Below the pieces are notes generated by a model, which made no database searches, had not been told where the DNA came from, and saw nothing but the letters and a program-made list of their open reading frames with translations. A DNA stretch of 64,000 bases, from sequence record MW883059, one strand, 5' to 3'. Source of the stretch: Escherichia phage vB_EcoM_SYGD1. The translations under genes and the position numbers were made by a program. This document shows positions 2,763-60,680 of this stretch, piece by piece; position 1 is the first letter of the stretch; every line of letters starts with the position of its first letter.

Positions 2763-3767
2763 ATGTTTAAAAAGTATAGCAGTCTTGAAAATCATTACAA
2801 CTCTAAATTTATTGAAAAACTTTATAGCTTGGGATTGACTGGTGGGGAGTGGGTAGCTCGTGAAAAGATTCACGGCACAAATTTCTCATTGATTATTGAG
2901 CGTGATAAAGTAACTTGCGCTAAACGTACTGGACCGATTCTTCCTGCTGAAGATTTCTTTGGGTATGAAATTATTCTAAAGAATTACGAAGATTCTATTA
3001 AAGCAGTACAAGATATTATGGAAACCTCAGCGGTTGTATCTTATCAAGTCTTTGGCGAATTCGCTGGACCTGGCATTCAGAAGAATGTCGATTATGGCGA
3101 TAAAGATTTTTATGTATTTGACATTATTGTTACTACAGAAAGTGGTGATGTGACTTATGTCGATGATTATATGATGGAATCATTTTGTAATACATTTAAA
3201 TTTAAAATGGCTCCACTTTTAGGTCGCGGTAAATTTGAAGAGCTTATTAAATTGCCAAATGATTTAGATTCTGTCGTCCAAGATTATAATTTTACAGTAG
3301 ACCATGCTGGATTAGTTGACGCTAACAAATGTGTTTGGAAAGCTGAAGCCAAAGGCGAAGTATTTACCGCTGAAGGATATGTATTGAAACCTTGTTATCC
3401 TTCTTGGCTTCATAATGGAAATCGTGTAGCCATCAAATGCAAGAATTCCAAATTTAGTGAAAAGAAAAAGTCTGATAAGCCTATTAAAGCTAAAGTTGAA
3501 CTATCAGAAGCTGATAACAAATTGGTGGGAATTTTAGCTTGCTATGTTACACTGAACCGAGTAAATAACGTTATTTCTAAAATTGGTGAAATTGGTCCGA
3601 AGGATTTTGGAAAGGTGATGGGACTAACTGTTCAAGATATTTTGGAAGAAACTTCTCGTGAAGGTATTACTCTAACTCAAGCAGATAATCCTTCTTTGGT
3701 TAAAAAGGAATTAGTTAAAATGGTACAAGATGTACTTCGTCCGGCTTGGAATGAATTGGTAAGTTAA
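2763..3767 (+). CDS. rnlB: RNA ligase 2
   Basis: ORF track 334 aa; lysine nucleotidyltransferase motif I in EKIHGTNFS; same length and position as T4 Rnl2 (gp24.1). Confidence 0.85.
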
Positions 3768-40905: not shown

Positions 40906-40978
40906 TGGGAATTAGCCAAGTTGGTAAGGCATAGCACTTTGACTGCTAGATGCAAAGGTTCGAGTCCTTTATTCCCAG
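40906..40978 (+). tRNA. tRNA-Gln (anticodon UUG)
   Basis: hand-folded cloverleaf: acceptor tgggaat/attccca, anticodon loop ctTTGac, T-arm aaagg-ttcgagt-ccttt; no encoded CCA. Confidence 0.8.
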
Positions 40979-40979
40979 C

Positions 40980-41066
40980 GCGAGAATGGTCAAATTGGTA
41001 AAGGCACAGCACTTAAAATGCTGCGGAATGATTTCCTTGTGGGTTCGAGTCCCACTTCTCGTACCA
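40980..41066 (+). tRNA. tRNA-Leu (anticodon UAA), long variable arm, CCA encoded
   Basis: acceptor gcgagaa/ttctcgt, anticodon loop ctTAAaa, T-arm gtggg-ttcgagt-cccac, 3' acca. Confidence 0.8.
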
Positions 41067-41072
41067 AAGTTT

Positions 41073-41144
<72 letters not shown>

Positions 41145-41156
41145 AAATTTAATTTA

Positions 41157-41230
41157 CTCCGTGTAGCTCAGTTTGGTAGAGCGTCTGCTTTGGGAGCAGA
41201 ATGTCACAGGTTCAAATCCTGCCGCGGAGA
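41157..41230 (+). tRNA. tRNA-Pro (anticodon UGG)
   Basis: acceptor ctccgtg/cgcggag, anticodon loop ttTGGga. Confidence 0.75.
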
Positions 41231-41232
41231 CT

Positions 41233-41319
41233 GGAGGCGTGGCAGAGTGGTTTAATGCACCGGTCTTGAAAACCGGCAGTCGCTCCGGTGACTCATAGGT
41301 TCAAATCCTATCGCCTCCG
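41233..41319 (+). tRNA. tRNA-Ser (anticodon UGA), long variable arm
   Basis: acceptor ggaggcg/cgcctcc, anticodon loop ctTGAaa, T-arm atagg-ttcaaat-cctat. Confidence 0.8.
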
Positions 41320-41326
41320 TAATTTC

Positions 41327-41399
41327 GCTGATTTAGCTCAGTAGGTAGAGCACCTCACTTGTAATGAGGATGTCGGCGGTTCGATTCCGTCAATCAGCA
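41327..41399 (+). tRNA. tRNA-Thr (anticodon UGU)
   Basis: acceptor gctgatt/aatcagc, anticodon loop ctTGTaa. Confidence 0.8.
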
Positions 41400-41405
41400 T
41401 ATCAA

Positions 41406-41477
41406 GGCCCTGTAGCTGGAAGGTTCAAGCAAGCGACTCATAATCGCCAGATGGTGGTTCAATTCCACCCAGGGCCA
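41406..41477 (+). tRNA. tRNA with CAU anticodon (T4 tRNA-Ile homolog; Met by anticodon alone)
   Basis: acceptor ggccctg/cagggcc, anticodon loop ctCATaa, T-arm ggtgg-ttcaatt-ccacc. Confidence 0.7.
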
Positions 41478-41518
41478 TATTTTGGGAACATAAATACTCT
41501 TAGAAATAGGAGATATTT

Positions 41519-42184
41519 ATGTTCCATTACACTTATAAAATAACAAATAAAATTAATAATAAAATCTATATAGGCGCTCATTCTACCGAAAATTTAGATG
41601 ATGGATATATGGGTTCTGGTAAATTATTAAAAAGAGCCCAAGACAAGTATGGTATAGAAAATTTCTCTAAAGAAATATTAGAGTTCTTTGACGATAAAAC
41701 CTCTATGTTTGAGTCAGAAAAGAATATTGTGACTGAAGAGTTTTTAAAGCGCCCTGATGTTTATAATTTGAAATTAGGTGGTGAAGGTGGTTGGGACCAT
41801 TTAAACACTAAAGAATATTTGGATAAAAAGAAAGAAGCTTCCTTAAAAGGGGCTGCTGCTTTTAAAACCAGATTTGAGAACGACCCAGACCTTAAAGAAA
41901 AATATCGTAAAATGGGTTCAGAAAGGTTTAAACAGCTTTGGGATAATCCTAAGTATAGAGAGAAATTTTTAAATATTAAATCTTTATTGGGTAAGACCCA
42001 TACTCCTGAAACTATTAATAAAATGAAAGAATCTCACGCCAGAAATAAACACCAACAGGGCGAAAAGAATTCCCAATTTGGTATGATGTGGATTCATTCA
42101 TTAGATGAAAAAGTTTCTAAACGTATTAAGAAAACTGACCCAATTCCAGAAGGATGGTTTAAAGGTCGAAAAATGAAATTTTAA
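41519..42184 (+). CDS. segB: GIY-YIG homing endonuclease embedded in the tRNA cluster (SegB-like)
   Basis: ORF track 221 aa; TYKITN ... KIYIGAH GIY-YIG motifs; position between tRNA subclusters as T4 segB. Confidence 0.75.
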   Translation: MFHYTYKITNKINNKIYIGAHSTENLDDGYMGSGKLLKRAQDKYGIENFSKEILEFFDDKTSMFESEKNIVTEEFLKRPDVYNLKLGGEGGWDHLNTKEYLDKKKEASLKGAAAFKTRFENDPDLKEKYRKMGSERFKQLWDNPKYREKFLNIKSLLGKTHTPETINKMKESHARNKHQQGEKNSQFGMMWIHSLDEKVSKRIKKTDPIPEGWFKGRKMKF

Positions 42185-42187
42185 TTA

Positions 42188-42264
<77 letters not shown>

Positions 42265-53887: not shown

Positions 53888-54064
53888 ATGAAAATTGAAG
53901 CACTTAATCGATATGTCATCATTAATGGTGATTTTTTCGTCGACATGGATGAAGTCACTAGTGAAGAACTTGTAGAACTTCTTAAGGAACATTATGATAT
54001 GTGTGATGAAGTTGCAACTCACATGGCGTGTGCAATATTCTCTCTTTCATATGTGGTGGAATAA
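53888..54064 (+). CDS. small hypothetical protein (58 aa)
   Basis: ORF track 53843 would start inside the promoter; ATG at 53888 follows SD gaggag. Confidence 0.4.
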
Positions 54065-54267
54065 TGATTAGTATCGAACAAGCGGATAAAATTAAGGAAT
54101 TAGTAGCTTTAATTCGTAAAGCAGACGAGGAACTTAGTGACTTTGCTTGGTTTTCGTCAGGCATTGCAAATAAAGGTATTGAAGAATTTGAAGCTAAAGT
54201 TGATAATGCTGTAGAAGCTTTAGATATGTTTCTTGATGAAATTATCGATCATAATACGAGAGTTTAA
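54064..54267 (+). CDS. small helical protein, paralog family member
   Basis: ORF track 54028; ATG at 54064; [14 protein letters not shown] ... LDMFLDEII. Confidence 0.45.
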   Translation: MISIEQADKIKELVALIRKADEELSDFAWFSSGIANKGIEEFEAKVDNAVEALDMFLDEIIDHNTRV

Positions 54268-54269
54268 GT

Positions 54270-54464
54270 ATGCTGACACACGAACAGTTTGAAAAAATCA
54301 TTAAATTAGTACGTGATGTTGAAATAGATTCATATCAATTAGCAGTTGAGCATTGTGAAGGATATTCATACGACGGTATAGAAGCAGCTAAAAGAGATTT
54401 GGATAAATCCAAAGCTAAGTTAGTTCAATATCTTGAAATGATTAGGTGGAATAATGAAAACTGA
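54270..54464 (+). CDS. small helical protein, paralog family member
   Basis: ORF track 64 aa; MLTHEQFEKIIKLV ... LVQYLEMI. Confidence 0.45.
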   Translation: MLTHEQFEKIIKLVRDVEIDSYQLAVEHCEGYSYDGIEAAKRDLDKSKAKLVQYLEMIRWNNEN

Positions 54465-54627
54465 AAAGCAGATGTTTTTAATGAAGCTAATTGAAGAATA
54501 CGCTAATGCAGTTTCTGACTATGAGTATTCTTCTCGTGAAAGAGGTACAGCTTTCGCAAAGGAAGAAATGAAAATTATGGTTGATGCTCACACAAAGCTT
54601 CAGAATTTTATTGAAAACGTCATTTAA
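54454..54627 (+). CDS. small helical protein, paralog family member (57 aa)
   Basis: not in ORF track; ATG after SD ggtgga; MKTEKQMFLMKLIEEY ... LQNFIENVI. Confidence 0.35.
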   Translation: MKTEKQMFLMKLIEEYANAVSDYEYSSRERGTAFAKEEMKIMVDAHTKLQNFIENVI

Positions 54628-54629
54628 CA

Positions 54630-54659
54630 GTTTACAAGTTGGCAAGGTTATGGTATAGT
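54630..54659 (+). promoter_or_regulatory. T4-type early promoter cassette
   Basis: GTTTAC at 54630, -10 tggtatagt. Confidence 0.55.
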
Positions 54660-54687
54660 AATCTTGTCAACTGTCAAGGAGAAGAGA

Positions 54688-54792
54688 ATGAAAATTTTGT
54701 TTGTTGTGTATGTGATGATTCAATATAATTACCCAATGTTTACTTATAATCTGGTGAACAACATTATTGATATTATTCAAAGGAGCATGTAA
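54688..54792 (+). CDS. 34-codon hydrophobic small ORF
   Basis: not in ORF track; strong SD aaggag 7 nt upstream; stop overlaps next start (TAATG); MKILFVVYVMIQYNYPMFTYNLVNNIIDIIQRSM. Confidence 0.25.
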   Translation: MKILFVVYVMIQYNYPMFTYNLVNNIIDIIQRSM

Positions 54793-54977
54793 TGACAAGT
54801 GAGCAGGCTTTTAAATTAAGAGAATTAATTGAGATGTATAGTAAAGCTGTTCATACATCAACAGTTATTGATGAATCAGCTTTCTCCGGATATGCTAACA
54901 AGATTAAATACAAAACTCTTATGGAAGAAGCTAAAGTAAATCTTGATTCTTATATTGAAACTTTAATTGGTGAATAA
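54792..54977 (+). CDS. small helical protein, paralog family member
   Basis: ORF track 61 aa; MTSEQAFKLRELIEMY ... LDSYIETLI. Confidence 0.45.
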   Translation: MTSEQAFKLRELIEMYSKAVHTSTVIDESAFSGYANKIKYKTLMEEAKVNLDSYIETLIGE

Positions 54978-54978
54978 C

Positions 54979-55245
54979 ATGGGCTTTCCTAAATTAGAAG
55001 TAGGCGATTTAGTCTTAACAAAATTGTGGAATGATGCTCAATCAGTAGAAATCTGTCAATATCGTGGAGCAACAGGTAATTTGATGTACACGATTTATAA
55101 CCCAGAAATTTTGTTAGAGTGTCATTTGGAACGCTTTATAAAAGACACTGATAGTATGCCTTATAGTGTATCGATTGTGCGTAAATCTGACACAAAGGAA
55201 TACTCTAAAATTTTAGAAAAAATTCATGCCAATAAAAAGGATTAA
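54979..55245 (+). CDS. small hypothetical protein
   Basis: ORF track 54967 (TTG); ATG at 54979. Confidence 0.4.
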   Translation: MGFPKLEVGDLVLTKLWNDAQSVEICQYRGATGNLMYTIYNPEILLECHLERFIKDTDSMPYSVSIVRKSDTKEYSKILEKIHANKKD

Positions 55246-55246
55246 T

Positions 55247-55777
55247 ATGAAACGATTAGTATTAGAAGTTAGTTCACTTTTTGGTGAATTGGCTATAGAA
55301 AAAGTAAATAATATGTATCGTTTGACGCAAGAAGACGATATGCTATATTTTACGCCTAGCGAAATTATTCATTTAACCCAAATTGAAAAACCTTACACTG
55401 ATAAAATTGTAAGCATTAATGATGAGCATAAAATTCATTTTTATTCTTTATGCCCAGGATTTAATATTGAAAGCGAGTCAATATGCTTATCAATTAATAA
55501 TTGGGATAATTTTATAACTAAAATTAAATATTTTTATTATTCTAACGAAAGAAAACATGGTTTAAAATGGTTTAAAAATTGCAATGCTATTATTACTAAC
55601 GCTTGTAATCAAAATTATGAAACTGTTTTAAATGTATCAAAGTGTTACGAAGAAGGAGATGTCTTAACTATTCGTCAATCGGTAAATGATGTTAATGTTG
55701 TTGTATTAAACAAAGAAGAAGCTGTTTTATTAAAGACTTATCTTGATTCTGTCATTCCAACTATGATTTCAAAGTGA
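55247..55777 (+). CDS. hypothetical protein, tandem paralog A
   Basis: ORF track 55226; ATG at 55247 after SD aaagga; shares GFNIE and C-terminal YL..V.P.M with the next ORF. Confidence 0.45.
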   Translation: MKRLVLEVSSLFGELAIEKVNNMYRLTQEDDMLYFTPSEIIHLTQIEKPYTDKIVSINDEHKIHFYSLCPGFNIESESICLSINNWDNFITKIKYFYYSNERKHGLKWFKNCNAIITNACNQNYETVLNVSKCYEEGDVLTIRQSVNDVNVVVLNKEEAVLLKTYLDSVIPTMISK

Positions 55778-55783
55778 GGAAAT

Positions 55784-56305
55784 ATGTTTATTTCGAGTGA
55801 AAGTGGTTTAATTCGTGTTGAATTTAAAAATGACATCTTCCTTATTCAAGGAGATGATATTATTAAAATGAGTTATGACGAAATCAAGAAAATTTGCCAT
55901 GCTCTTGAAAGTCATGGAAAAGTGAACGCTGTTATTGATATTGGCGATTTATGGGTGACACTTTATGAAGTATCCGAAGGATTTAACATTGAAGATGAAA
56001 ATAACATCTTAGCTATTGATAAAAGAAGTGATTTGTTTGATGTATTAAAAGTTTATGAACATTCAAACGGTGGAAGAAAAGCTGTATTGATTTATCAAAA
56101 ACCGCATTCATGCGGAACTGCTTCAATCATTTCAAATATTGAAGATGAAACTGATACTTATATGTGTGTTTTAAAAGCTGGTGGTGACCGTCATCCGGAT
56201 TTTATTTCTATTCGTCAAAACAATGGAGAAATTTCATTATCAAAATCAGAAGCTGAAGCTATGATTAAGTATTTAACAACTGTTACACCTTCAATGAAAG
56301 GATAA
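55784..56305 (+). CDS. hypothetical protein, tandem paralog B
   Basis: ORF track 173 aa; SD gagga. Confidence 0.5.
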   Translation: MFISSESGLIRVEFKNDIFLIQGDDIIKMSYDEIKKICHALESHGKVNAVIDIGDLWVTLYEVSEGFNIEDENNILAIDKRSDLFDVLKVYEHSNGGRKAVLIYQKPHSCGTASIISNIEDETDTYMCVLKAGGDRHPDFISIRQNNGEISLSKSEAEAMIKYLTTVTPSMKG

Positions 56306-56307
56306 TT

Positions 56308-56769
56308 ATGATTATTAATGAAAGCTCTTGGCACTATAAATTATTCAAAATGTTTAATGATGAATGGAAACGACCTAAGACACTGTGCGCGTATTTTTGG
56401 TCTATTGTTATTCCTACATTTTTCGTTTCTTTTTTCGGATGTACTATACTCGCAGGTCTAACTATCATCTGCGCAGAAATCATGCAGAAATGGCTTATTT
56501 TTGGTAGTTTATGGACTCTTATTCCATCAGCATTTATACTTGCCATTTTGCTTGTTTTACTTATTATTGGTTCATTTGTTATTCCTGCACAACTGCATGA
56601 AAAATATAAAGATTATAAATGGAAAAAGGATTATACTTTACATGTAGAAAATATTGATAGGGCGTATAAAGGTTTACCTCCTATTAAACCCAAGAAATCT
56701 ATTATCGTCGAATTTTTAAAAGCTCGTAAAGCTAAAGTATGTCCTGTTATTGAATATAAGGCTGAATGA
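56308..56769 (+). CDS. integral membrane protein (3-4 predicted helices)
   Basis: ORF track 153 aa; long hydrophobic stretches. Confidence 0.5.
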   Translation: MIINESSWHYKLFKMFNDEWKRPKTLCAYFWSIVIPTFFVSFFGCTILAGLTIICAEIMQKWLIFGSLWTLIPSAFILAILLVLLIIGSFVIPAQLHEKYKDYKWKKDYTLHVENIDRAYKGLPPIKPKKSIIVEFLKARKAKVCPVIEYKAE

Positions 56770-57779
56770 TGAAAACAGTAATGAAAAGCTATTTTGGTAG
56801 TCATCTTTATGGAACTTCTACCCCAGAATCTGATGTAGATTTTAAAGAAATTTTTGTTCCTCCTGCTCGTGATATTCTTATCGGAAACGTCAAAGAGCAC
56901 ATGAGTAAAAACACCAACAACACATCATCTAAAAACACTAAAGATGATATTGACCACGAATTGTATAGTCTTAAGTATTTCTTTAAATTAGCAGCAGATG
57001 GTGAAACCGTAGCATTGGATATGCTTCACACTCCACCTGAACTAGTGGTTAAATCTGATTTGCCTGATGTGTGGAAGTTTATTCAAGACAACCGTTCTCG
57101 TTTTTATACGACTAACATGAAATCCTATTTAGGATATGTCCGTAAGCAAGCTTCTAAATACGGTGTCAAGGGTTCTCGTTTGGCTGCATTACGTGATGTA
57201 TTGAAAGTAGTTAATCAAATCCCTGAGCAATGGGTTGATTACCAAGAAGACGGTTCCATTAAGCAGCGTCGTACTAAAGTTGAAGATATTAAGCATCGTC
57301 TTCCAAAAAACGAATTCTGTGAATGGGTGTTCCATGATCATGAGAAAACAGGCCCACAAACGTTCTATACTGTATTGGGTCGTAAATATCAGACAACGCT
57401 TTCTCTTATTGAGCTTAAGCAGTCACTGAACAAATTAAATGCTGAATATGGTGAACGCGCTCGTAAGGCCGAAGCCAATGAAGGCATCGACTGGAAAGCT
57501 CTGAGCCATGCTTGTCGTGGTGGACTTCAACTATTGGAAATTTACAAAACTGGTGACTTGGTTTATCCACTTCAAGACGCTCCATTTATTCTCGACGTGA
57601 AGTTGGGTAAACATCCATTTAAAACAGTTCAAGAGTTTTTGGAAGATGTGGTCGATCAAGTAGAAGCAGCATCTACTGAAGCTTCTAAGAACGGTATGCA
57701 GCAAAAAGTAGACATGAGTTTCTGGGATGACTTCCTTGAGAAGGTGTATCTCGAAAACCATCGAAGTTATTATAAATGA
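56766..57779 (+). CDS. protein with N-terminal Pol-beta-type nucleotidyltransferase motif
   Basis: ORF track 337 aa; FGSHLYGTSTPESDVDF fits the minimal NTase signature G[SG]x9-13 DxD close to the N-terminus; large helical C-terminal region. Confidence 0.55.
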   Translation: MMKTVMKSYFGSHLYGTSTPESDVDFKEIFVPPARDILIGNVKEHMSKNTNNTSSKNTKDDIDHELYSLKYFFKLAADGETVALDMLHTPPELVVKSDLPDVWKFIQDNRSRFYTTNMKSYLGYVRKQASKYGVKGSRLAALRDVLKVVNQIPEQWVDYQEDGSIKQRRTKVEDIKHRLPKNEFCEWVFHDHEKTGPQTFYTVLGRKYQTTLSLIELKQSLNKLNAEYGERARKAEANEGIDWKALSHACRGGLQLLEIYKTGDLVYPLQDAPFILDVKLGKHPFKTVQEFLEDVVDQVEAASTEASKNGMQQKVDMSFWDDFLEKVYLENHRSYYK

Positions 57780-57780
57780 T

Positions 57781-57808
57781 AGGGAGCCTTCGGGCTCCTT
57801 TTTTTTAT
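57781..57808 (+). terminator. Intrinsic terminator
   Basis: AGGGAGCC-TTCG-GGCTCCT followed by ttttttttattt. Confidence 0.7.
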
Positions 57809-57830
57809 TTCAAAAATTTTTCACAAAGTT

Positions 57831-57860
57831 GTTTACTTCTATCATAAAGCATATTATAAT
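57831..57860 (+). promoter_or_regulatory. T4-type early promoter cassette
   Basis: UP-like caaaaatttttcacaaagtt, GTTTAC at 57831, 18 bp spacer, TATAAT at 57855. Confidence 0.65.
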
Positions 57861-57892
57861 ATATTTGTAGTTAATTAATCGTTCTTTAAAAA

Positions 57893-58393
57893 ATGAAGAG
57901 AAACACAATGCATATTTTAATGAAATGCCTTGGCAACAAAATTAATGATTTTAATCATAAGCGTGTTAATGATTACATTAAAGACACACTTGAGATTAAA
58001 GACGTACTTTTTAGAGGACTTACAATAGAGGAAGTACTATCTCATAAGTTTGAAGTTAATAGGAGAATCAAATTTAAAAGAATAACTTCCTTTAGTAGTG
58101 AATCTCATATAGCTGAAACATTTGCAGCAGAACGCTATATGACTAATGTTTTAATAGTGTTAAAAAATGCAAACGTTTTTGACTATTCAACTGCTATGAT
58201 TGAAATTTTAGAAAATTTAATCGCAATTGAAGAATCTGGCCAGATTGATGATGATAAGCTTAATAAGCTTTATGATAATCTTTCTATGGTGGATTATGAA
58301 AGAGAGTTTTTATTGCCAATTAATTCGGAGTTAACAGTTAAAAACATATATTTTGATAGCAAAAAGAGCATGCATATAATAGAAATGGAATAA
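57893..58393 (+). CDS. hypothetical protein
   Basis: ORF track 166 aa; bracketed by promoter and terminator copies. Confidence 0.5.
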   Translation: MKRNTMHILMKCLGNKINDFNHKRVNDYIKDTLEIKDVLFRGLTIEEVLSHKFEVNRRIKFKRITSFSSESHIAETFAAERYMTNVLIVLKNANVFDYSTAMIEILENLIAIEESGQIDDDKLNKLYDNLSMVDYEREFLLPINSELTVKNIYFDSKKSMHIIEME

Positions 58394-58401
58394 AAGCATA
58401 A

Positions 58402-58428
58402 AGGGGCCCTAGAGGTCCCCTTTTTTAT
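58402..58428 (+). terminator. Intrinsic terminator
   Basis: GGGGCCC-TAGA-GGTCCCC (one mismatch) followed by ttttttattt. Confidence 0.65.
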
Positions 58429-58450
58429 TTCAAAAATTTTTCACAAAGTG

Positions 58451-58480
58451 GTTTACAAGCATAAAGCTTTATGGTACTAT
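58451..58480 (+). promoter_or_regulatory. T4-type early promoter cassette
   Basis: UP-like caaaaatttttcacaaagtg, GTTTAC at 58451, -10 tggtactat. Confidence 0.6.
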
Positions 58481-58516
58481 ACAACTATCAAAACAAACAC
58501 TTAAACGGAAAACAAA

Positions 58517-58666
58517 ATGAAAATTACACCAATTGAAGTAAAAAAGTTGATTGATACAGAAGAAATTTCAGAGTGTTTTGAAAGTTTCTTAGAAGACGCA
58601 ACTGAAGATAACGCGGTTTATCTCGCCCAGAAAATTATCGAAACTTATTTGGAGAAGAATCAATGA
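58517..58666 (+). CDS. small helical protein (49 aa), possible paralog family member
   Basis: not in ORF track; weak SD; ends ...IIETYLEKNQ; ATGA overlap with next gene. Confidence 0.3.
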   Translation: MKITPIEVKKLIDTEEISECFESFLEDATEDNAVYLAQKIIETYLEKNQ

Positions 58667-58926
58667 CAGTTTACGTAGATGTTTTAATGAATCATGGATG
58701 GAAACTTCGCGGTCATCCAACTAAAAATTGTCATATGTTCACTGATGGAGATATTGAAGAGCTTCATAAAATGGCAGAAGCAATAGGAATGAAACGTTCT
58801 TGGTTTCAAGATAAACGCATTAAACATTATGACTTACACGCGCGCCGCCGCCAAAAAGCTGTAGAACTTGGAGCTGTAGAAGTATCTCGTCGCGAAGCAG
58901 TAAAAATTTGGCAAACATTAAAATAA
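58663..58926 (+). CDS. small conserved protein, DUF4031-like
   Basis: ORF track 87 aa; pattern MTVYVD...RG....CHMF.D...ELH..A..IG..R.WFQ....HYDL resembles the DUF4031 family as I recall it. Confidence 0.45.
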   Translation: MTVYVDVLMNHGWKLRGHPTKNCHMFTDGDIEELHKMAEAIGMKRSWFQDKRIKHYDLHARRRQKAVELGAVEVSRREAVKIWQTLK

Positions 58927-58929
58927 ATT

Positions 58930-58959
58930 GTTTACAGTAGGGTAGTAGTGTGATACTAT
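58930..58959 (+). promoter_or_regulatory. T4-type early promoter cassette
   Basis: GTTTAC at 58930, -10 tgtgatactat inside stem GGGTA...TACCC; same cassette as at the internal-protein-like locus. Confidence 0.6.
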
Positions 58960-58995
58960 TACCCTATCAAAACAAATGTGAAATTGGAGAATAAA

Positions 58996-59964
58996 ATGAA
59001 AACTGTAACTATCAATAAGGGTATCTACTTCGGTAAAGAAATCTCTGGAACTTTTGAGCTCTTAGGCGAATGGTTCCCAGATAATGCTCCGGTAGATGCA
59101 CAAGGAGATGGTAAAGTTTTTGTTGAAATTGACGGTAAGCGTCGCGGTGTTTGGGTTTACAAATCAGACATTTCATATGATGGTGTAAAAGTTGAAGAAG
59201 TTAAAGAATCGTATGAAGATATGAAAACCCGCATTAATAAAAGATTTAATGTTATGGGAATGATGACGAATGGTATTATTAACGGAAATATTCGTTCATT
59301 GATTATCTCTGGCGCAGCAGGTATTGGTAAAACGTATTCTTTAGATAAAGCTTTAAATAAAGCAAATGATATTGGATACATTGAATATAAAAGCATTAAT
59401 GGTAAAATCTCTGGTATTGGTCTTTATGAACAGCTTTGGAATAATCGTGAAGAGAATTCTGTCCTTTTGATTGATGATGTGGATGTTTTCTCTGATATGG
59501 ACATTCTTAATCTTCTAAAAGCCGCTCTGGACACCGGAGAGACCCGTAAAGTCTGCTGGAGCACTGCATCTTCTTACTTAGAAGAAAAAGGCATTGAGCG
59601 TGAGTTTGAATTTAAAGGAACGATTGTTTTTATCACAAACGTTGACATTGACCGCGAATTAGACCGTGGTACTAAACTTGCTCCACATTTACAAGCATTA
59701 GTGTCCCGCTCAGTTTATTTGGATTTGGGTGTTCACACTAATGAAGAAATTATGGTCAGGGTTGAAGATGTTATTCTTTCAACCGACATGATGCAAAAGC
59801 GCGGTCTTTCTGATGAAGAAACTTATAAAGCATTATCATGGATGAAAGTCAATGTTAATCGTTTACGCAATGTTTCACTGCGTACTGCACTTTATCTTGC
59901 TGACTTTATTATGACCGACAAAAATCATTGGGAAGAAATTGCTGAAACGGTATTATTAAAATGA
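58996..59964 (+). CDS. P-loop ATPase (AAA-like)
   Basis: ORF track 58978; ATG at 58996 after SD ggag; Walker A GAAGIGKT, Walker B VLLIDDVD. Confidence 0.6.
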   Translation: MKTVTINKGIYFGKEISGTFELLGEWFPDNAPVDAQGDGKVFVEIDGKRRGVWVYKSDISYDGVKVEEVKESYEDMKTRINKRFNVMGMMTNGIINGNIRSLIISGAAGIGKTYSLDKALNKANDIGYIEYKSINGKISGIGLYEQLWNNREENSVLLIDDVDVFSDMDILNLLKAALDTGETRKVCWSTASSYLEEKGIEREFEFKGTIVFITNVDIDRELDRGTKLAPHLQALVSRSVYLDLGVHTNEEIMVRVEDVILSTDMMQKRGLSDEETYKALSWMKVNVNRLRNVSLRTALYLADFIMTDKNHWEEIAETVLLK

Positions 59965-60680
59965 AAAAATATTTTACTATCTATAAAACTGAAATATTAA
60001 ATTTAAAGACAGGTATTAAGAAATACTATTATGGTCGACATATAACTAATAACATCAATGATTCGTATGTTGGTAGTGGAAATTATATAGAACGTGTAAA
60101 AGTGTCAAATGACCACATATTATCAAAAACGGTTTTAGAAGTTTTTGATAATTATGATAAAATGGTACAAGCTGAAATATTATATATCATGGCAGGTAAA
60201 TTGAAATATGGAAAAAACTGTGTTAACCTGTCATACGGGGGTGAAGGAGGAAAGGTTGCAGATGAAACTAGGATAAAATGCAAAAAGCATTCTATAAATT
60301 TATGGAAAAATCCTAATCATATACAGCATATGAAGAAAAAGATGAAAGAGGTTACATCCACGCCGGAAGCTAAATTAAACACTTCAATAAAAACTTCGCA
60401 ACGATATAAGGACCCAGTTTTTGTTAGAAAAGTTAGTAATATTATTAAAAAGAAACTAAGCAATCCTGTAGTAAAAGAAAAGCATATTAATGGAATTAAA
60501 GCTGCAAAGCGTTCTCATTTAACTATATGGCAGTATGAAGATGAATTATTCGAGCTTTGGAAAGAAACTAAATATGGATGGAGAAAATTTACAAAGGAAG
60601 CTATAAAACACGGATATCCAAATGAACCGTATCGTAGTATGGTATCAACTTTTCAGAAAAGACATTTAGAAGAATCCTAA
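59961..60680 (+). CDS. GIY-YIG homing endonuclease (Seg-like)
   Basis: ORF track 239 aa; FTIYKTE ... KKYYYGRH GIY-YIG motifs; C-terminal repeated basic modules. Confidence 0.7.
   Translation: MKKYFTIYKTEILNLKTGIKKYYYGRHITNNINDSYVGSGNYIERVKVSNDHILSKTVLEVFDNYDKMVQAEILYIMAGKLKYGKNCVNLSYGGEGGKVADETRIKCKKHSINLWKNPNHIQHMKKKMKEVTSTPEAKLNTSIKTSQRYKDPVFVRKVSNIIKKKLSNPVVKEKHINGIKAAKRSHLTIWQYEDELFELWKETKYGWRKFTKEAIKHGYPNEPYRSMVSTFQKRHLEES

Follow-up and report, generated by a model that had tools for sequence, protein, structure and literature searches.

The T4 pathway of Pnk and Rnl1 was the first RNA repair system to be described, and annotation of T4 gives its genes pseT and rnlA a role in repairing tRNA in prr hosts. 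Here we analysed a 64,000-nucleotide stretch of DNA from Escherichia phage vB_EcoM_SYGD1 (MW883059; this whole stretch is called the window below), and in particular an open reading frame (ORF) at 56766..57779. This ORF is the T-even gene nrdC.11, which belongs as a long form to the RlaP (PF10127) branch of the Pol-beta nucleotidyltransferases (NTases), and by analogy with its relatives we propose, with a probability of roughly 0.6, that its product would add nucleotides back to cut RNA ends so that phage RNA repair enzymes could reseal nuclease-damaged tRNAs.

In a study of jumbo phages the distribution of RlaP proteins mirrors that of RNA ligases, and they were predicted to restore, ahead of ligation, nucleotides that RloC and other such nucleases had taken out (Iyer et al. 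2021, PMC7824862). According to a December 2025 preprint (PMC12776372), the Pseudomonas enzymes PfRlaP and PaRlaP add one or two nucleoside monophosphates (NMPs) to the 3'-OH of RNA, prefer Mn2+ and modify neither DNA nor proteins, E. coli proteins being left unlabelled by PfRlaP. In a tRNA mimic PfRlaP prefers the broken anticodon-loop end over the acceptor end; it also labels full-length tRNA and rRNA-sized species, with little specificity for the nucleoside triphosphate (NTP). RlaPs partly restored the aminoacylation of a repaired tRNA that had been one nucleotide short, and their products mismatch the chemistry of RtcB. In the PF10127 similarity network of the same work, T4NrdC.11 is marked as an RlaP of unknown function and lies in a separate cluster, cluster 5.

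The ORF is the T-even gene nrdC.11

Two ORFs of the window form the core of the locus, both as they had been given in a preliminary description made from the sequence:

56766..57779, plus strand: nrdC.11 ortholog, long-form RlaP-family NTase (ORF list; 337 aa counted from the first ATG)
56308..56769, plus strand: upstream membrane ORF (ORF list; 153 aa)

Over 4.8 kb around nrdC.11 the identity to Escherichia phage ACG-C40 is 96.6%, matches to this part occur in 723 phage records, and the window is that of a T2/T4-like Tequatrovirus (T-even phage). Over its full length the NTase ORF shares 97.6% amino acid identity with T4 NrdC.11 (AF158101; AAD42629), and identity is 99% to the T2 protein and 98.5% to the ACG-C40 ortholog, which RefSeq labels 'nucleotidyltransferase, similar to T4 NrdC.11'. 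The T4 gene order MobD.1 ... NrdC.11 ... NrdC.10 is kept as well, and high full-length identity together with the position between mobD.1 and nrdC.10 places the ORF in the orthologous group of T4 NrdC.11. Membership of the RlaP branch is given by Pfam, with a match to PF10127 (RlaP, 'RNA repair pathway DNA polymerase beta family') of 44.7 bits against a gathering cut-off of 23 bits (E 1.8e-11), and the ORF also matches phrog_388, 'nucleotidyltransferase' (E 1.4e-136). No match to the NTase was found in NCBIfam or by PADLOC, and an Rfam scan of window positions 54000-60500 returned none.

Homologs of the NTase occur in 1517 phage records, among them Escherichia, Klebsiella, Aeromonas, Acinetobacter and Vibrio phages, and a library of 1.84 billion proteins yielded 3451 cluster representatives, nearly all of which span the full length, with 300-350 aa. 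In many GenBank and UniRef entries NrdC.11 is called 'thioredoxin', which we reject as an artefact of the gene name nrdC.11, and one public ortholog entry is labelled 'HNH homing endonuclease'. The database entry of the T4 protein itself (AAD42629) reads 'conserved hypothetical protein', 38.9 kDa. The preliminary description had allowed that the ORF might turn out to be an already characterised T4 gene product; it is a named T4 product of a described family, which goes halfway towards that case. Since both the gene, as T4 nrdC.11, and its membership of the RlaP family were already known, the identification is a rediscovery and its novelty is low.

An intact NTase core with a clade-specific C-terminal part

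Conservation was read from an alignment of 52 diverse NrdC.11 homologs with 33-55% identity, and domain limits from an AlphaFold (AF2) model with a pLDDT of 94.1 and a pTM of 0.82. The features recognised within the protein are as follows:

56796..56840, plus strand: catalytic motif G11-S12 ... D23-x-D25 (GSHLYGTSTPESDVD), invariant in the 52 homologs and aligning with SGS...SDYD of short RlaP
56952..56954, plus strand: D63, invariant, where strand 62-68 begins (strand from the model), and predicted to be the third catalytic carboxylate
56766..57155, plus strand: NTase domain at the N-terminus, running from aa 1 to about 130, the sole part aligning with canonical RlaP (Pfam, hhalign)
57162..57485, plus strand: clade-specific segment in the middle of the protein (aa 133-240), in which two long helices flank a beta-rich subdomain (aa 155-209)
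57495..57518, plus strand: K244-x3-H248-x2-R251 in DWKALSHACR of the C-terminal helical domain, invariant columns in the 52 homologs

The Pol-beta NTase signature that had been noticed near the N-terminus is real and its catalytic residues are intact. Its spacing, G11-S12-x10-D23-V-D25, falls within the superfamily pattern hG[GS]-x9-13-Dh[DE]h, with a third carboxylate on a neighbouring strand in the model, and the protein has the minimal NTase alpha/beta fold. Invariant positions across the alignment are G11, S12, G16, S22, D23, D25, N57, D63, Y132, R231, K244, H248, R251, P268 and K279, while D61 and D85 are nearly so. The loss of catalytic aspartates on closer alignment, which had been named as a possible objection, is thus not seen for D23, D25 or D63. 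The invariant K244-x3-H248-x2-R251 is a candidate NTP- or RNA-binding motif, judged from its conservation.

In the model the NTase domain at the N-terminus is followed by helices (119-151), the beta-rich subdomain (155-209) and a helical C-terminal part (214-336). The preliminary description had spoken of about 300 helical residues after the signature, which holds for helices 119-151 and 214-336 and fails for the beta-rich subdomain. Searches of PDB sequences with the NrdC.11 protein, the clade profile and a short-RlaP profile matched neither NTase nor RlaP, the PfRlaP crystal structure being absent from the PDB copy used. The best matches of the model to solved structures in Foldseek were 3c18, KNTase/ANT(4') and HalB, with an E-value of 3e-3 at best and TM scores of at most 0.33. 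When the middle segment was modelled alone (pLDDT 95), fold searching returned nothing beyond helical hairpins. As modelled, the beta-rich segment is without a solved structural relative, and the C-terminal part has a KNTase-like plan, in which an NTase domain is followed by a helical domain, plus a clade-specific addition.

Several other classes were considered and rejected at this point. The head-neck-body domains of class I/II CCA-adding enzymes and poly(A) polymerases (PolyA_pol / tRNA_NucTransf) were not found, and the CCA-enzyme body that had been envisaged finds no support in Pfam or fold searches. The domains and bilobal fold of the cGAS/DncV-like CD-NTases and OAS were absent from the Pfam, PADLOC and fold matches, and no four-helix bundle with an Rx4-6H motif, as in HEPN proteins (MNT-HEPN, KNTase_C-like), was present. 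The C-terminal part, which had been thought possibly HEPN-, CCA-body- or CD-NTase-like, is therefore none of the three by profile and structure search.

The structural matches bear on two further explanations. NrdC.11 could be a nucleotidylyltransferase of small molecules or proteins, of the ANT(4')/KNTase, LinB, MNT antitoxin or DrrA/GlnE AMPylator type, to which the KNTase match might be thought to point; we consider this highly unlikely, since the scores are at the superfamily level only, neither a HEPN partner nor an Rx4-6H motif is found, PfRlaP did not label E. coli proteins (PMC12776372), and the genomic associations described below indicate RNA ends. Alternatively, it could act in signalling or anti-signalling, making free oligonucleotides or cyclic nucleotides in the manner of cGAS/CD-NTase, OAS or Hailong HalB against host immune signalling. 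The match to HalB, the point of contact with such systems, is limited to the common NTase core; no cGAS/CD-NTase structures are among the fold matches, Pfam gave no SMODS, OAS1_C or Mab-21 match and PADLOC none, and the neighbours of relatives are RNA repair genes and not effector or sensor genes, so that this explanation is scarcely credible. The preliminary description had proposed an RNA-repair or a signalling enzyme; of these, RNA repair is favoured by the RlaP family and the repair operons of relatives, while signalling is left with no match in Pfam, PADLOC or the fold searches.

NrdC.11 as a long-form RlaP

The similarity to canonical RlaP is confined to the N-terminal domain. The PF10127 match covers aa 7-135 of NrdC.11 and profile positions 23-142 of 249, and when the NrdC.11-clade profile was compared with a short-RlaP profile by hhalign only aa 3-130 were aligned, with a probability of 94.5-95.2%. 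In this alignment GS lies on SGS, D23/D25 on SDYD, D63 on the invariant D73 and D85 on the invariant E95 of short RlaPs. Homology over the whole protein was not recovered, even with relaxed settings, and a second alignment over the C-terminal part had a probability of 0.2%.

By eye, the K-x3-H-x2-R of NrdC.11 may be equivalent to an invariant K-x3-Y-x2-R of short RlaPs, an equivalence that hhalign did not support, even with relaxed settings. If the motifs are equivalent, the NrdC.11 clade would have about 90 inserted residues separating the 'GY..Q..KY' helix from K-x3-[HY]-x2-R, again as judged by eye. On the basis of these comparisons NrdC.11 is assigned to a long-form RlaP subclade.

Cellular relatives lie beside RNA-repair genes

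A motif scan for DWKAx[SH]HAxR over 185,579 species genomes found 156 relatives, and the neighbourhoods of the best 80 of these 156, bacterial and archaeal loci with 33-53% full-length identity, were inspected for 6 kb either way. Many of the 80 loci are on megabase-sized chromosomal contigs. About 34 of them have an RNA-repair neighbour within this distance, namely a short RlaP, RtcB, Pnkp, Hen1, Ro60, or Pnk together with Rnl1.

The most frequent of the counted partners is canonical short RlaP, which has 255-275 aa, matches PF10127 from end to end (E 1e-51 to 1e-62) and is present in 23 of the 80 loci. In 21 of these it is directly downstream on the same strand, the stop and start often overlapping, and in the other two it lies at 3.5-4.4 kb on the opposite strand; loci with such a long/short pair include L010, L021, L036, L042, L058, L060, L061, L065, L072 and L077. 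RtcB occurs in nine loci, Pnkp (kinase-phosphatase-ligase, PF16542) in eight, its end often coinciding with the start codon of the NTase, Hen1 (PF12623) in seven and Ro60/TROVE in four. Each of the RNA-repair genes counted is found at most about once per genome.

Two loci are particularly informative. One (L011), on a contig of 4 kb that was assigned to an archaeal metagenome-assembled genome, has all genes on one strand in the order NrdC.11-like NTase, NT5C-like ORF, T4-type Pnk (AAA_33 + HAD_PNKP), one ORF and an Rnl1-type ligase (PF09511), and the other (L051) has a PNKP-type phosphatase, the NTase, one ORF, an SNF2 helicase and RtcB. As read from gene order, these cellular neighbourhoods are the strongest independent support for a function of the NrdC.11 clade at RNA ends. 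Because long and short RlaP are present together in 23 of the 80 loci and adjacent in 21, they are distinct paralogs and not interchangeable, and the arrangement suggests that two NTases form a module within operons of the Pnkp/Hen1 and RtcB kinds.

A Pfam census of 150 neighbours at the 48 loci lacking an RNA-repair gene in a first pass gave no recurrent family. Three loci (L013, L015, L024) have in common a block, 1.6-5 kb downstream of the NTase, that encodes a UDG-superfamily protein of 516 aa together with a ResIII/SNF2 helicase.

A proposed role in restoring cut RNA ends

From this evidence we infer an activity, a substrate and partners for NrdC.11. D23, D25 and D63 would hold two metal ions, and one or a few NMPs would be moved from NTPs onto the 3'-OH of a broken RNA. 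The likely substrate would be a tRNA 5' half left after a host RloC-type anticodon nuclease had cut and then trimmed the anticodon loop, and the addition would rebuild what this nucleotide-excising nuclease took out. The product would retain a 3'-OH, suited to the phage 3'-OH/5'-P ligases Rnl1 and Rnl2 once Pnk had healed the ends. Because RlaP products suit Rnl1 and Rnl2 and not RtcB, the T-even setting fits them better than Pseudomonas does. One such ligase gene is in the window, and its product is a possible downstream partner of NrdC.11:

2763..3767, plus strand: rnlB (RNA ligase 2), 3'-OH/5'-P RNA ligase (PF09414, E 3.8e-23; PF18043, E 8.6e-24)

The gene would thus serve an accessory counter-defence function. 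It is dispensable in the laboratory, because a viable genome-reduced T4 has lost the nrdC.11-mobD.3 block (PMC9825161).

Several observations weigh against nucleotide restoration by NrdC.11. No activity or phenotype of NrdC.11 itself is reported in the papers searched, and the role of RlaP in vivo was left open by those who characterised it (PMC12776372). The C-terminal ~200 residues, including the beta-rich segment, do not align with characterised RlaPs, and for that reason the substrate and product of NrdC.11 could differ from those of RlaP. In bacteria the long form frequently has a short RlaP next to it, which suggests that the two are not redundant, and the phage has the long form only. 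RNA-repair neighbours are absent from 46 of the 80 cellular loci. Nor does the phage gene itself have an RNA-repair neighbourhood, rnlB being 53 kb off within the window, and in T-even genomes nrdC.11 is tens of kilobases from pseT, rnlA and rnlB. No RNA-repair gene, whether pnk, rnl or another, was found beside the NTase in phages JD18, PhaR5, XZ1, KPN8 and Vibrio 1.081.O, the sole exception among the phage neighbourhoods examined being a distant Rnl2 homolog that lies some 9 kb upstream of the NTase in Vibrio 1.081.O.

The breadth of RlaP activity raises a further explanation, that NrdC.11 acts on intact RNAs, tailing RNA 3' ends in general or maintaining those of tRNAs, as in CCA restoration or tagging for decay or protection. 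The labelling of full-length tRNA and rRNA-sized species by PfRlaP with little NTP specificity (PMC12776372) would agree with this, as would the eight phage tRNA genes in the window, and the clade-specific C-terminal half could confer another RNA specificity. Against it, neither Pfam nor fold searches gave any similarity to class I/II CCA-adding enzymes, the cellular relatives accompany healing and sealing enzymes (Pnkp, Pnk, RtcB, Rnl1) and not tRNA maturation genes, and the acceptor end is less favoured by PfRlaP than the broken anticodon-loop end (PMC12776372). We therefore regard tailing of intact RNAs as unlikely, and prefer the restoration of nucleotides at cut RNA ends.

A more specific form of nucleotide restoration can be put forward only tentatively. 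The NrdC.11 clade may be a functionally distinct long-form RlaP whose C-terminal module reads a particular broken RNA and which in bacteria forms an obligate pair with short RlaP; the T-evens would have kept the long form only, as a third tRNA-repair component that rebuilds RloC-removed nucleotides before sealing by Rnl1 or Rnl2.

If nucleotide restoration by NrdC.11 is true, such a third enzyme would be how T-evens might counter anticodon nucleases whose excision of nucleotides defeats simple resealing. The idea is already published for the RlaP family, of which T4 NrdC.11 had been named a member, and the value of the present analysis lies in a sharper target: a distinct long-form subclade with defined catalytic residues and strong neighbourhood evidence, in a genetically tractable phage.

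The upstream membrane gene and the transcription unit

The junction of the two ORFs reads ...GCTGAATGATGAAA in the window. The stop codon of the membrane ORF (TGA, 56767-56769) overlaps by 4 nt with the first nrdC.11 ATG at 56766, and a second in-frame ATG at 56769 would give a protein of 336 aa with a 1-nt TGATG overlap. The overlap that had been described is thus present, although public ortholog annotations start nrdC.11 at the second ATG (336 aa). Signals for starting and ending expression were read as follows:

56758..56761, plus strand: AAGG, a Shine-Dalgarno-like element within the 3' end of the membrane ORF (read from the sequence)
57781-57800 (57781..57810 with the T-run), plus strand: intrinsic terminator, GGGAGCC-TTCG-GGCTCC + T-run, which closes the transcription unit

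The spacing from AAGG is better for the ATG at 56769 (7 nt) than for that at 56766 (4 nt), and translational coupling with the membrane ORF would be compatible with either start. The terminator, an 8-bp stem with 5 GC pairs and a TTCG loop followed by a T-run, bears out the strong terminator that had been predicted. A T4-early-type promoter-like site lies beyond it, at 57832-57860, ahead of the gene downstream of nrdC.11.

The 153-aa ORF matches phrog_944, 'membrane protein' (E 2.6e-49), and occurs in 850 phage records; in record OM386655 it is called 'polynucleotide kinase', and further product names there mismatch the orthologous genes. It had been described as a multi-helix membrane protein, which stands as to the membrane and is corrected as to the helices: there are two long hydrophobic stretches, around aa 27-58 and around aa 63-95, and the tail at the C-terminus is basic (15 K/R against 8 D/E). 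Its position relative to the NTase in different phages is as follows:

Most Tequatroviruses: directly upstream of nrdC.11, stop/start overlap (1 nt as annotated in ACG-C40)
RB69 (Mosigvirus): directly upstream, 4-nt overlap
VR5 (Dhakavirus): directly upstream, 4-nt overlap
STP4-a (Gelderlandvirus): one gene separates membrane ORF and NTase
JD18 (Jiaodavirus): three genes separate membrane ORF and NTase
Acinetobacter phage PhaR5: one ORF and a terminator separate membrane ORF and NTase
T4: membrane ORF absent, mobD homing endonuclease at that site

Such an arrangement could reflect a functional two-gene module, in which coupling would set the stoichiometry and the NTase would work at the inner membrane or be regulated by the membrane protein. 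The 4-nt overlap is kept in Tequatrovirus, Mosigvirus RB69 and Dhakavirus VR5 though the membrane proteins are just 30-48% identical, and a homolog of the membrane protein lies within 1-3 genes upstream of the NTase in Gelderlandvirus, Jiaodavirus and an Acinetobacter phage. In contrast, however, T4 keeps nrdC.11 (97.6% identity) with mobD in place of the membrane gene, and the two genes are for that reason not an obligate module; the NTase is found in 1517 phage records against 850 for the membrane ORF, and no membrane partner recurs beside the cellular relatives. Gene order is broadly conserved and overlaps are frequent in this phage family: in the ACG-C40 annotation of the region start/stop overlaps occur at 6 of about 25 junctions, and in the window they also occur at 58663 and 59961. 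Since overlapping starts are frequent in the early region, the membrane ORF/nrdC.11 overlap is not distinctive. Thus a functional unit of the two proteins, as had been implied by the preliminary description, is improbable, given mobD in T4 and the one to three intervening genes in other genera, and the overlap is best seen as tight packing of early genes, with synteny conserved (genome compaction), and not as a two-protein machine.

Other genes around nrdC.11

Upstream of the membrane gene, MobD.1 of T4, a y05I-like putative transcription factor (PF24449 + PF24448), has two paralogs in tandem, encoded at 55226..55777 and 55784..56305 on the plus strand. T4 has one MobD.1 copy, then the HNH endonuclease gene mobD directly upstream of nrdC.11, where SYGD1 has the 153-aa membrane gene and the second MobD.1 paralog.

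Downstream, SYGD1 differs from T4 by three additional genes between nrdC.11 and nrdC.10 (ModB-like ADP-ribosyltransferase (ART), 49-aa ORF, DUF4031). These three, the NrdC.10-like gene and a tRNA cluster elsewhere in the window are located as follows:

57893..58393, plus strand: 166-aa ModA/ModB-like ART paralog (phrog_832, E 4e-24; no Pfam match)
58517..58666, plus strand: 49-aa ORF (phrog_6888), 4-nt overlap with the next gene
58663..58926, plus strand: DUF4031 gene (PF13223, E 1.6e-21)
58978..59964, plus strand: NrdC.10-like P-loop/AAA ATPase (Pfam matches below threshold)
40906..42264, plus strand: tRNA cluster of eight genes (Gln, Leu, Gly, Pro, Ser, Thr, Met, Arg)

The ART gene is served by an early-type promoter-like site (57832-57860) and a terminator (58403-58419) of its own. 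It is found in only 158 phage records, with 95.8% identity to T2 and about 30% to the annotated ModB of other T-evens, and is missing from the corresponding T4 site; the 49-aa ORF and the DUF4031 gene are likewise insertions relative to T4. The NrdC.10-like ATPase lies about 0.1-1.2 kb downstream of nrdC.11 in T4, RB69, JD18, VR5 and PhaR5 (L002, L003, L004, L005, L087). In Vibrio phage 1.081.O (L092) a gene annotated as an AAA+ ATPase lies at a comparable place and may or may not be a homolog of NrdC.10, and no NrdC.10-like neighbour recurs in the cellular loci.

Comparison with known systems

The nearest solved structures, KNTase/ANT(4'), 3c18 and Hailong HalB, have the NTase core in common with NrdC.11, and KNTase and 3c18 also carry a C-terminal helical domain, as NrdC.11 does. 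Canonical RlaP (PfRlaP/PaRlaP) has a homologous NTase domain, in which GS, DxD, the third Asp and the conserved acidic D85/E95 position are common to both; in each the NTase domain is followed by a helical domain and the RNA-repair gene neighbourhoods are similar. NrdC.11 differs in being about 70-80 residues longer and in carrying the beta-rich subdomain (aa 155-209). The T4 Pnk/Rnl1 healing-and-sealing pathway for tRNA counters the anticodon nuclease PrrC, belongs to the same phage lineage as nrdC.11, and has ligases that require a 3'-OH, the end that an RlaP product has. We propose by inference that NrdC.11 may participate in this pathway, and the archaeal-binned locus L011 joins an NrdC.11-like gene directly to components of the T4 pathway type, a T4-type Pnk and an Rnl1-type ligase.

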